Part shown: piece after piece, positions 20,754-21,484 of the stretch
Layout: the number at the start of each line of letters is the position of its first letter
Numbering within the stretch: position 1 is the stretch's first letter
Source: a virus
Taxonomy: Duplodnaviria; Heunggongvirae; Uroviricota; Caudoviricetes
IMG/VR virus record: IMGVR_UViG_2897358383_000002
DNA length: 64,000 nt
Strand: one strand, 5' to 3'
Position numbers and translations under genes: made by a program
Notes under the pieces: model-generated
Seen by the model: only the letters and a program-made list of their open reading frames with translations
Told to the model about the DNA's origin: nothing
Database searches by the model: none

Positions 20754-20932
20754 TTATTAACCTCATTACTGGTTGGGAAATAAGGTTGCGGTGCCGGGTG
20801 CTTCCCGGTGTCCTTTAGCTGGTTATCCACCGTGGACGGGGAAATAAGGAGAAATAATGGACAGATATAACCATTTCCCCGCGTGCGCTTAGCCGCATTC
20901 ACCGCAACGGAAAGAGCATTCCTGGTGGACCT

Positions 20933-20957
20933 GTAGATTGGGATATGAACCCGTTAC
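20933..20957. repeat. 25-bp repeat element, copy 1 (GTAGATTGGGATATGAACCCGTTAC)
   Basis: Near-identical copy at 21212-21236 (one mismatch), 279 bp away. Confidence 0.6.
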
Positions 20958-21164
20958 AGGAGAATGCTCTTACCTGTTACGTGCTCCGTTTCGTGGAGCT
21001 AACGGCGGGTGATCGGGCCGCACCAGACTGGACTTATTTCAGCGTTATGCTCATGCCAGAGAATCAAACTGTGATGGTCGGTGCTGAACTCCGACACAGG
21101 GTTGTAGCAAGCCCCGCAAAGCGCGCACTACTGTAGTTGCGGCACATCAGCCTGTGCATTCACC

Positions 21165-21256
21165 ACAATGTTGAGAACACTGGTTGTCACGCTGCAACGC
21201 AACATTTATTCGTAGATTGGGATATGACCCCGTTACGCCAGTGTTCTCAACGTTGT
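21165..21256. repeat. 19-bp inverted repeat enclosing repeat copy 2
   Basis: ACAATGTTGAGAACACTGG (21165-21183) pairs with CCAGTGTTCTCAACGTTGT (21238-21256), one G-U position. The 54-nt spacer contains the second 25-mer. Confidence 0.55.
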
Positions 21257-21404
21257 AGTGCCGGTTACGGTTCCGGCCAGGCCTCTTCCTCAACGGGGTG
21301 TTCTCCATACGGACTACCGTTTATTGGTCGTTCCTGCGGTTTATGTTGTGAAGCCAGATGCTTATCTTCTGGTTGCTTCAAAGAGCTGCACTTCATCACA
21401 ACGG

Positions 21405-21476
21405 TAAGGGTACTTCGTAGGGATTCGAACCCTCTGCCAAGCTCGGCGATCTCCGACGTCGCAAAATACCCTTACC
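21405..21476 (-). pseudogene. Degenerate tRNA-like element
   Basis: Has a T-arm-like AGGGTTCGAATCCCT and 10-bp terminal complementarity (GGTAAGGGTA/TACCCTTACC), but no canonical D or anticodon arm could be drawn. Confidence 0.3.
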
Positions 21477-21484
21477 TGTTGTGC

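Follow-up and report, generated by a model that had tools for sequence, protein, structure and literature searches.

A family of structured hairpin modules beside the tRNA genes in the ban operon of phage P1

Paralogous hairpins of about two helical turns are repeated between the units of one phage transcript in the early region of T7 and T3, where RNase III hairpins such as R0.3 and R1.1 leave hairpin-capped products. Downstream of the transfer RNA (tRNA) gene tyrT of Escherichia coli, 178-bp repeats (rtT RNA, RF00391) form tandem units with pieces of tRNA in them; their origin is attributed to unequal recombination, and processing releases them as RNA. Other non-tRNA RNAs share a transcript with tRNAs, from which the enzymes of tRNA processing cut them out; among them are 3'ETS-leuZ, whose function as a sponge has been shown, and the stable species 1 and 2 RNAs of the T4 tRNA cluster. 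ERIC (IRU) and Correia elements are imperfect palindromes of ~70-150 bp that are transcribed from intergenic positions and fold as RNA, those of the Correia type being RNase III substrates. In this work, positions 20,754 to 21,484 of a viral DNA stretch of 64,000 nucleotides (nt; IMG/VR record IMGVR_UViG_2897358383_000002, hereafter the window) were characterized. The source of the window was phage P1, and the interval was 99.8-99.9% identical to the P1 records AF234173 and NC_005856, in which it is located within the ban operon, between trnT and tciA and downstream of the promoter Pban and a C1 operator. It holds members of a single family of hairpin modules, described below.

Repeat analysis of the window indicated that all the motifs reported in a preliminary description of this interval are pieces of one repeat family, read on the minus strand, which is the direction of the ban operon. 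A module consists of a clamp helix of 19-20 bp (17-25 bp among the P1 helices), formed by the 5' arm CACAAC(A)GGTAAGRG and the 3' arm CYCTTACCGTTGYG, with a variable interior between them. The 3' arm (...CYCUUACCGUUGYG) is followed by GRUGAAKK and then by a small hairpin. P1 carries four modules, designated A to D, all of them on the minus strand: three complete pairs of 5' and 3' arms plus module D. Within the window, the arm motifs were confined to positions 20890-21930, and elsewhere they were no more frequent than expected by chance.

The 25-mer GTAGATTGGGATATGAMCCCGTTAC, said to occur twice at a distance of 279 bp, was found exactly twice in the 64 kb, with no occurrence expected by chance, and the 16-mer CCCTTACCTGTTGTGC was recovered at 21469-21484 and 21908-21923 (0.06 expected). 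The second 25-mer is indeed enclosed by an inverted repeat, which was not the clean 19-mer first described, since its arms are 23 nt long with two mismatches (91%; 21161-21183 and 21238-21260). The first 25-mer also lies inside an inverted repeat, of 13 nt (20909-20921 and 20962-20974), which had been overlooked. As RNA, the 25-mer forms a two-tier hairpin (GUA/UAC and GGG/CCC) with the loop UUCAUAU. Its only divergent relative, in the related locus L078 (GUGACGGCCUCAUAAGCCAAUCCAC), differs by compensatory changes in both stems and retains the loop UCAUA. A reading of this loop as a T-loop was dropped, as the conserved loop K-UCAUA-W does not have the invariant A58; an anticodon loop with CAU is a closer likeness, though one perceived post hoc.

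In comparison with the systems mentioned above, the 19-20 bp clamp provides the approximately two turns of mostly Watson-Crick helix that are characteristic of RNase III hairpins. Unlike the T7 and T3 hairpins, the P1 modules have large, branched and interchangeable interiors, are tied to tRNA genes and show no sequence similarity to them. What is repeated at tyrT is the tRNA's own 3' end and not a clamp hairpin, and no Rfam match to RtT was obtained in the P1 interval. While 3'ETS-leuZ and the T4 species are single defined RNAs, the P1 modules form a variable array known from sequence, and whereas ERIC and Correia elements are scattered over entire genomes, members of the P1 family occur solely in phage leaders that contain tRNAs, in one orientation. 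The covariance scan with Rfam proposed in the preliminary description retrieved no family at gathering level for the modules in the P1 interval; weak matches to microRNA precursors and mascRNA were generic hairpin or tRNA-like noise, and a sub-threshold match to STnc100 adjoined module A. The clamp-hairpin family is absent from Rfam, and a full-text literature search found no account of these elements.

The minimum free energy (MFE) of each module was compared with those of shuffled sequences and expressed as a z-score. On the minus strand the four modules surpassed the shuffles (z from -4.8 to -6.9), with MFE values of -35 kcal/mol (z -5.4) for module A, -49.2 kcal/mol (z -6.9) for module B, -42.7 kcal/mol (z -5.3) for module C and -42 kcal/mol (z -4.8) for module D. 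Each module was 6-9 kcal/mol more stable on this strand than on the plus strand, on which module A reached -28.9 kcal/mol (z -2.6). For the entire 731-nt spacer, z was -5.2 in sense and -3.8 in antisense.

The clamps of 40 distinct arm pairs, representing 16 interior types, were aligned. Pairing was maintained in 93.8% of the cells versus 84.0% in shuffles, none of 500 shuffles being as high, and controls with slid partners were paired in 35-55%. Both sides had changed in 8 of the 20 clamp pairs, and the cells with double changes numbered 91, versus 31 in shuffles (0/500). Two arm classes, GGTAAG/CTTACC and GTTGAG/CTCAAC, differ from each other by fully compensatory changes, and 20 G.U pairs versus 7 C.A/A.C were counted on the tRNA-sense strand. 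The modules are real and structured, and their pairing is kept by compensatory change. A structured non-coding RNA was among the possibilities raised beforehand, and the fold z-scores, the compensatory changes and the strand asymmetry all speak for it. In the comparison across relatives, also advised there, whole modules and tRNAs differed from one genome to another.

The distribution of the family was assessed with a 17-mer of the 3' arm. In viral contigs it gave 155 matches, 143 of them with a 5' arm partner at a distance of no more than 320 nt; in a bacterial genome collection it gave 120 matches, none of them with a 5' arm partner, which were taken as a chance control. A total of 111 distinct modules were extracted, among which those oriented like the neighbouring tRNAs comprised 16 interior types, and some interiors contained T-arm-like hairpins. 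A tRNA was located within 1.5 kb of 307 of the 332 module occurrences, and 115 of the 332 started at most 6 nt from the 3' end of a tRNA (Thr 76, Ser 23, Asn 16). Klebsiella SSU5-like phage-plasmids harbour one module between tRNA-Asn and tRNA-Ser, and their counterpart of the 66-nt piece at 21345-21410 showed 95.5% identity versus ~74% for its flanks. In lambdoid prophages the family is present in the late-operon leader, between the Q and holin genes, and its orientation with respect to transcription is that found in P1. The segment 21070-21184, which extends 24 nt into the 3' arm of module B, recurs at 94% in a lambdoid prophage, where it is located between the genes for antiterminator Q and holin, and this copy too is oriented relative to transcription as in P1. 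The modules are tied to phage tRNA genes, with a single orientation relative to transcription. Beyond the preliminary description, they constitute one family, which has four modules in P1, all on the minus strand, the one transcribed in the ban operon, and which extends well past this phage.

Two variants outside P1 are of separate note. In the D6-type genomes L004, L012 and L015, a minimal module (5' arm CAACAGGAAAAGG, 26-nt interior, 3' arm CCGTTGTGGTAATTGC) follows tRNA-Met(CAU), with which the tRNAs of the operon end, at a distance of ~190 nt; the equivalent place in P1 has no module. In L081 (2138-2184, plus strand), a lambdoid late leader with the order Q, PR', tR', module and tRNA-CAU, the interior contains a complete type I hammerhead core (CUGAUGAG...CGAAAC...GUC), which the Rfam model Hammerhead_1 scored at 24.7 bits versus a gathering threshold of 34 (E 0.0017). 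When further hammerhead modules were sought with the pattern of a 5' arm and then CTGATGAG, 25 loci were obtained, of which only the known one in L081 was genuine. Since it falls below the Rfam threshold and has no second example, this hammerhead is treated as an anecdote. In the P1 interval, no ribozyme covariance model of Rfam, hammerhead or other, matched at E<=10.

Relatives of P1 recombine and rearrange at the repeats. Modules and tRNAs were combined in more than 25 distinct ways across ~110 loci, with the overall order unchanged. In SJ46-type genomes exactly the 279 bp between the 25-mers are deleted; in P7 and D6, 20919-21144 is replaced by tRNA-Ser(UGA) plus another module; JL22-type genomes have one extra module; and in CMS-2020a module B is joined directly to tRNA-Thr. 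Other relatives possess tRNA-Tyr, or tRNA-Arg instead of tRNA-Asn. The breakpoints between relatives fall in repeats, and also in 25-mers and spacers. The reading as remnants of tRNA gene turnover, among those suspected beforehand, thus has direct support: relatives gain and lose tRNA-Ser, tRNA-Tyr, Asn/Arg and modules with breaks in repeats, and module C is a tRNA without its anticodon arm.

The element next to tRNA-Thr for which a T-arm and paired ends but no cloverleaf had been described is present, and corresponds to the interior of module C. Its tRNA-like parts are a stem resembling that of an acceptor (UAUUUUG/CGAAGUA), a hairpin similar to a D-arm (GCGA..GG..UCGC) and a T-arm of canonical form, GAGGGUUCGAAUCCCUA. 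The T-arm GGGTTCGAATCCC (minus strand, 21420-21432; GAGGG-UUCGAAU-CCCUA) is situated between arms at 21403-21415 and 21464-21476. The anticodon arm is missing, only 11 nt (CGAGCUUGGCA) leading from the D-arm-like hairpin to the T-arm. ARAGORN, run on the window, did not call the element, and the Rfam tRNA model (RF00005, threshold 29 bits) gave no match in 20880-21484 at E<=10, nor for the element in 19500-23000 at E<=1. The interior is plainly a tRNA that has lost its anticodon arm. Its parent was sought among 75 distinct tRNAs from related loci, and no convincing donor was found. The coordinates of all features are given in Table 1.

Table 1. Hairpin modules of phage P1 and neighbouring features (positions in the 64,000-nt window).
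Feature	Position	Strand	Characteristics
Module A	20903..20981	-	Clamp with 5' arm GUAACAGGUAAGAGCAUUC and 3' arm GAAUGCUCUUUCCGUUGC, enclosing the first 25-mer hairpin; repeat families D1, D2, I3
25-mer, copy 1	20933..20957	-	Sense strand reads GUAACGGGUUCAUAUCCCAAUCUAC
Module B	21161..21260	-	23-bp clamp (inverted repeat I1) around the second 25-mer hairpin and another small hairpin
25-mer, copy 2	21212..21236	-	Exact repeat of copy 1
Module C	21397..21483	-	Clamp begins 1-3 nt past the CCA end of tRNA-Thr; truncated tRNA inside; 5' arm is the first 16-mer copy
tRNA-like core of module C	21411..21468	-	Read from sequence and fold
Module D	21838..21926	-	Degenerate plain hairpin upstream of tRNA-Asn; 5' arm is the second 16-mer copy; 3' arm CCUUUCCUGUUGCG
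3' arm of module C, next small hairpin and CACAAC motif	21345..21410	-	Most widely conserved piece
Spacer between modules B and A	20982..21160	-	
STnc100/PasD-like leader of tciA	20787..20906	-	Starts GGUGAAUGCGG... at the 3' end of module A
tciA (TerB-like gene)	20328-20753	-	P1 annotation
tRNA-Thr (UGU)	21485..21560	-	ARAGORN, Rfam, GenBank annotation
tRNA-Asn (GUU)	21563..21638	-	ARAGORN, Rfam, GenBank annotation
upl (63 aa)	20945..21136	+	GenBank P1 open reading frame; ATG within the first 25-mer
plp (125 aa, TTG start)	21137..21514	+	GenBank P1 open reading frame; antisense overlap with tRNA-Thr

The interval is most likely an untranslated spacer of the P1 ban operon transcript and not a pair of genes. 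The preferred reading, to which a probability of roughly 0.55 is assigned, is that the modules are non-coding spacer RNA elements that punctuate the tRNA-mRNA precursor or make it more stable, and that serve as recombination joints in the gain and loss of tRNAs; the putative role in processing is plausible. In the annotated ban operon the modules are placed between the tRNAs and tciA, consistent with an intercistronic position, and the promoter scan was blank there. As punctuation of the precursor, a two-turn helix located 1-3 nt after the CCA end of a tRNA would offer an entry point for an endonuclease, judging from general E. coli RNA metabolism. RNase III would be the first guess for a duplex of ~20 bp, with RNase P or RNase E as possible alternatives. 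P1's own C4 RNA is processed by RNase P. Cleavage, which is observed for the T7 and T3 hairpins and only presumed for the P1 modules, would yield free tRNA 3' ends together with flanking RNAs that are hairpin-capped and may be more stable. The modules may also keep the ~1.5 kb of untranslated leader folded, which would reduce the loading of Rho before tciABC and ban are reached. Patches of homology for the gain, loss and swap of tRNA genes and modules could be provided by the conserved arms together with the 25-mers, and the tRNA-like pieces would be decayed passengers of this turnover.

Several observations weigh against this reading. The plus strand folds well too (z -2.6 to -5.1), as expected of any palindrome, and the G.U asymmetry is modest because several of the G.U pairs are common by descent. 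The sequence of the arms is conserved well past the needs of pairing, an excess for which recent common descent or gene conversion, and not function, could be responsible. The roles in processing, against Rho and in stability are inferred only, and a ribozyme-like interior was recognisable in just one related module, below the Rfam threshold. A consensus promoter scan of 19900-22400 detected no sigma-70-like promoter, not even the annotated Pban, P1upl and P2upl, and a strong dicF-type terminator separates Pban from the tRNAs, so that read-through or antitermination would be needed for Pban to drive the tRNAs, tciABC and ban; for these two reasons, the transcription of the interval rests on annotation and knowledge from the literature. 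Finally, SJ46-type genomes have a chimeric module, with its 5' arm from B and its 3' arm from A, that is retained in several contigs in spite of poor pairing, and module A of Ro157c2YLVW is devoid of the inner 25-mer hairpin owing to an internal deletion. The persistence of chimeric and deleted modules indicates that intact modules are dispensable for maintenance.

These last observations are also the strength of the main rival, according to which the modules are neutral debris: scars of unequal recombination and tRNA decay, palindromic by descent from one palindromic ancestor and without benefit to the phage. The great variation in number and order of the modules agrees with it, as do the persistence of chimeric and internally deleted copies, the plainly broken tRNA of module C and the close similarity of the copies, as in recent duplication. 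On the other hand, debris would not be expected to undergo the compensatory double changes that keep pairing over 16 interior types and two arm classes, nor to be kept beside tRNAs, with one constant orientation relative to transcription, in P1-, D6-, SSU5-like and lambdoid genomes, nor to include a piece such as 21345-21410, far more conserved than its flanks. This explanation is considered unlikely, although it deserves more credit than any of the other rivals.

The likeness of the interiors to parts of tRNAs (T-arm and D-arm in module C; a UCAUA loop on a GGG/CCC stem in modules A and B) would fit stable small RNAs acting in trans, either as sponges, like 3'ETS-leuZ, or as mimics of tRNA fragments that decoy tRNA-binding enzymes or anticodon nucleases. 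Conservation of the loop in the divergent L078 variant and the relationship of the adjacent segment to the Hfq-bound small RNAs (sRNAs) STnc100 and PasD point in the same direction, and phage tRNA sets are known in general to counter tRNA-targeting defences. Nevertheless, the interiors are highly interchangeable and at times deleted, their likeness to tRNA parts was recognised post hoc and no Rfam family matched them, making a function in trans quite improbable. Held to be just as improbable is an extended version, in which the clamp is a generic presentation scaffold for interchangeable small functional RNAs that phages express from their tRNA operons, and the array is a locus of counter-defence based on RNA, with cassette exchange as the source of its diversity. 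Candidate interiors could be the tRNA body without anticodon arm, the GGG/CCC stem with its CAU-containing loop, like an initiator or Ile2 anticodon arm, and the occasional hammerhead; they could decoy or titrate host tRNA-targeting nucleases, or enzymes that modify or process tRNAs.

Selfish miniature inverted-repeat elements of the ERIC, Correia or REP type, with the clamp arms as terminal inverted repeats, were also considered. The dimensions are appropriate (terminal inverted repeats of 14-23 bp, total size of 65-230 bp), a stable RNA hairpin would result from transcription, and there are several copies per locus. Such elements would be dispersed, whereas the copies were restricted to tRNA-containing leaders, in P1 to the one kilobase mentioned above, and overall lay mostly in the vicinity of tRNAs; none of the 120 matches in the bacterial collection was genuine, and neither target-site duplications nor dispersed insertions were seen. 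Mobility of this kind is regarded as a very poor explanation of the array, marginally behind a function in trans.

The preliminary description found no protein-coding explanation for the interval, and named a known coding gene spanning the motifs in relatives among the findings that would overturn it. Formally, GenBank P1 does list two such genes on the plus strand, upl and plp (Plp, putative lipoprotein), annotated with predicted promoters, and if the interval encoded them the repeats would be coincidental. Their open reading frames exist, and that of upl remains open in L007 and L011, where its start, an ATG inside a repeat, is not conserved. Both failed every coding test run. In tciA, taken as control, the wobble position holds 20 of the 23 variable sites; in plp, with 20/16/19 variable sites by codon position, there is no third-position excess, and the 31 pooled substitutions of upl are distributed 6/14/11. 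Stops or frameshifts interrupt 8 of the 14 full-length plp alleles, and 116 of the 137 plp matches in relatives are merely partial, broken at module borders; the gene has a TTG start and overlaps tRNA-Thr in antisense. No Pfam match was obtained for Upl or Plp. Upl alone matched PHROG families (14500 and 7444), which are built from annotated phage open reading frames and are therefore not independent evidence of coding.

Annotation of the interval in other records was consistent with these results. Neither gene is annotated in the P7 record; the Prokaryotic Genome Annotation Pipeline (PGAP) assigns essentially tRNAs only in E. coli RefSeq genomes, with one 'hypothetical protein' among 40 listed of 649 records; and in PLSDB nearly all plasmids have no gene there, with one 'hypothetical protein' among the matches listed. 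A preprint on RNA sequencing of P1vir and a paper on the P1 virion proteome make no mention of upl, plp or this spacer. It is very probable that neither is a gene, coding remains excluded because both failed the coding tests, and the coding explanation ranks lower than mobile elements.

Least probable of all are palindromes acting as DNA, for attC-like recombination, protein binding or replication: the cassette-like layout, the imperfect palindromes with a bulged base and a variable centre, and arms with AAC/GTT like integron R boxes are suggestive, but CACAAC/GTTGTG is off the consensus RYYYAAC/GTTRRRY, breakpoints also fall in 25-mers and spacers as in ordinary homologous recombination, the orientation is fixed to transcription, the G.U asymmetry favours RNA, and no integrase association was noticed, none having been sought systematically. 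The attC-like site as such was rejected, as the arms (A)CACAAC / GTTGYGR depart from the R''/R' boxes at two positions.

With regard to the surroundings of the modules, the order on the minus strand is dicF-like region, tRNA-Asn, tRNA-Thr, spacer of ~730 nt, tciA, tciB, tciC, trnI and ban, and the C1-controlled promoter Pban/Op72 is annotated at ~22290-22335. In the P7 record the tRNAs are annotated as being under ban operator control as well. ARAGORN identified only tRNA-Met/Ile, tRNA-Thr and tRNA-Asn in the whole window, and Rfam agreed on these three. An intrinsic-terminator-like hairpin with a T-run was located at 22105-22133 (minus strand), within the region annotated as dicF-like (22094-22195). 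At 22010-22140 (minus strand) Rfam gave weak hits, probably noise, to the models of permuted tmRNA and beta-tmRNA (24 and 14 bits, far below gathering).

The tRNA set of the P1-, D6- and SSU5-like phage-plasmids (L003-L135) is combinatorial, with a fixed order: Asn or Arg(UCU), an optional Tyr, Thr, an optional Ser(UGA), and then Met/Ile2(CAU). An 87-nt tRNA-Ser(UGA) was found in P7 (L005, 1638-1724), D6 (L004, 2138-2224), L038 (1762-1846) and many P1-like plasmids, and is absent from P1. It is unannotated in P7, borderline for the Rfam tRNA-Sec model (46.6-48 bits versus gathering 47) and, according to the D6 record, not assignable to an amino acid by tRNAscan-SE. In SJ46 (L006, NC_031129), hypothetical coding sequences cover the tRNA-Thr/tRNA-Asn region and the tRNAs are unannotated, and for D6 (L004, NC_050154) the listed tRNA strand is opposite to that given by ARAGORN.

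Adjoining module A, the leader of tciA fitted the central part of the STnc100 model (RF02076) with 33.4 bits (gathering 47; E 8.6e-5; model positions 31-147 of 206). As the match is sub-threshold and restricted to that part, 20787-20906 is not assigned to STnc100. The same partial match follows the 3' clamp arm in P7, L033 and L096, with 43 bits over the same range in P7. According to a 2026 preprint, STnc100 is related to PasD, an sRNA of enteropathogenic E. coli (EPEC), and the family occurs in TerB- and tRNA-containing prophage neighbourhoods. The validated EPEC sRNA PasD2 begins with CGCAUGGUGAAUCC, which resembles the GGUGAAU and hairpin found after each clamp; it has its own promoter, no clamp upstream, and directly follows a DUF3927 (TciB-like) gene. 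Unlike STnc100 and PasD, the P1 segment does not include the terminator part and is a leader of tciA instead of a free-standing sRNA gene, and the modules themselves are outside that family.

The preliminary description thus concerned real features and was essentially correct in their interpretation. The category to which the modules belong, structured intercistronic spacers and tRNA remnants, is already familiar; new here is a single module family common to several phage groups and overlapping two probably spurious reference genes. P1 serves as a reference phage, and P1-like phage-plasmids are present in ~12% of complete E. coli genomes (627/5426); upl and plp are apparently annotation artefacts over structured RNA, and PHROGs is one of the databases through which they spread. 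The family is a mark of the leaders that carry tRNAs in P1-, D6-, SSU5-like and lambdoid phages and coincides with the breakpoints of tRNA exchange (Asn/Arg, Tyr, Thr, Ser). It provides a testable handle on the turnover of phage tRNA repertoires and on the excision of tRNAs from long phage mRNAs.

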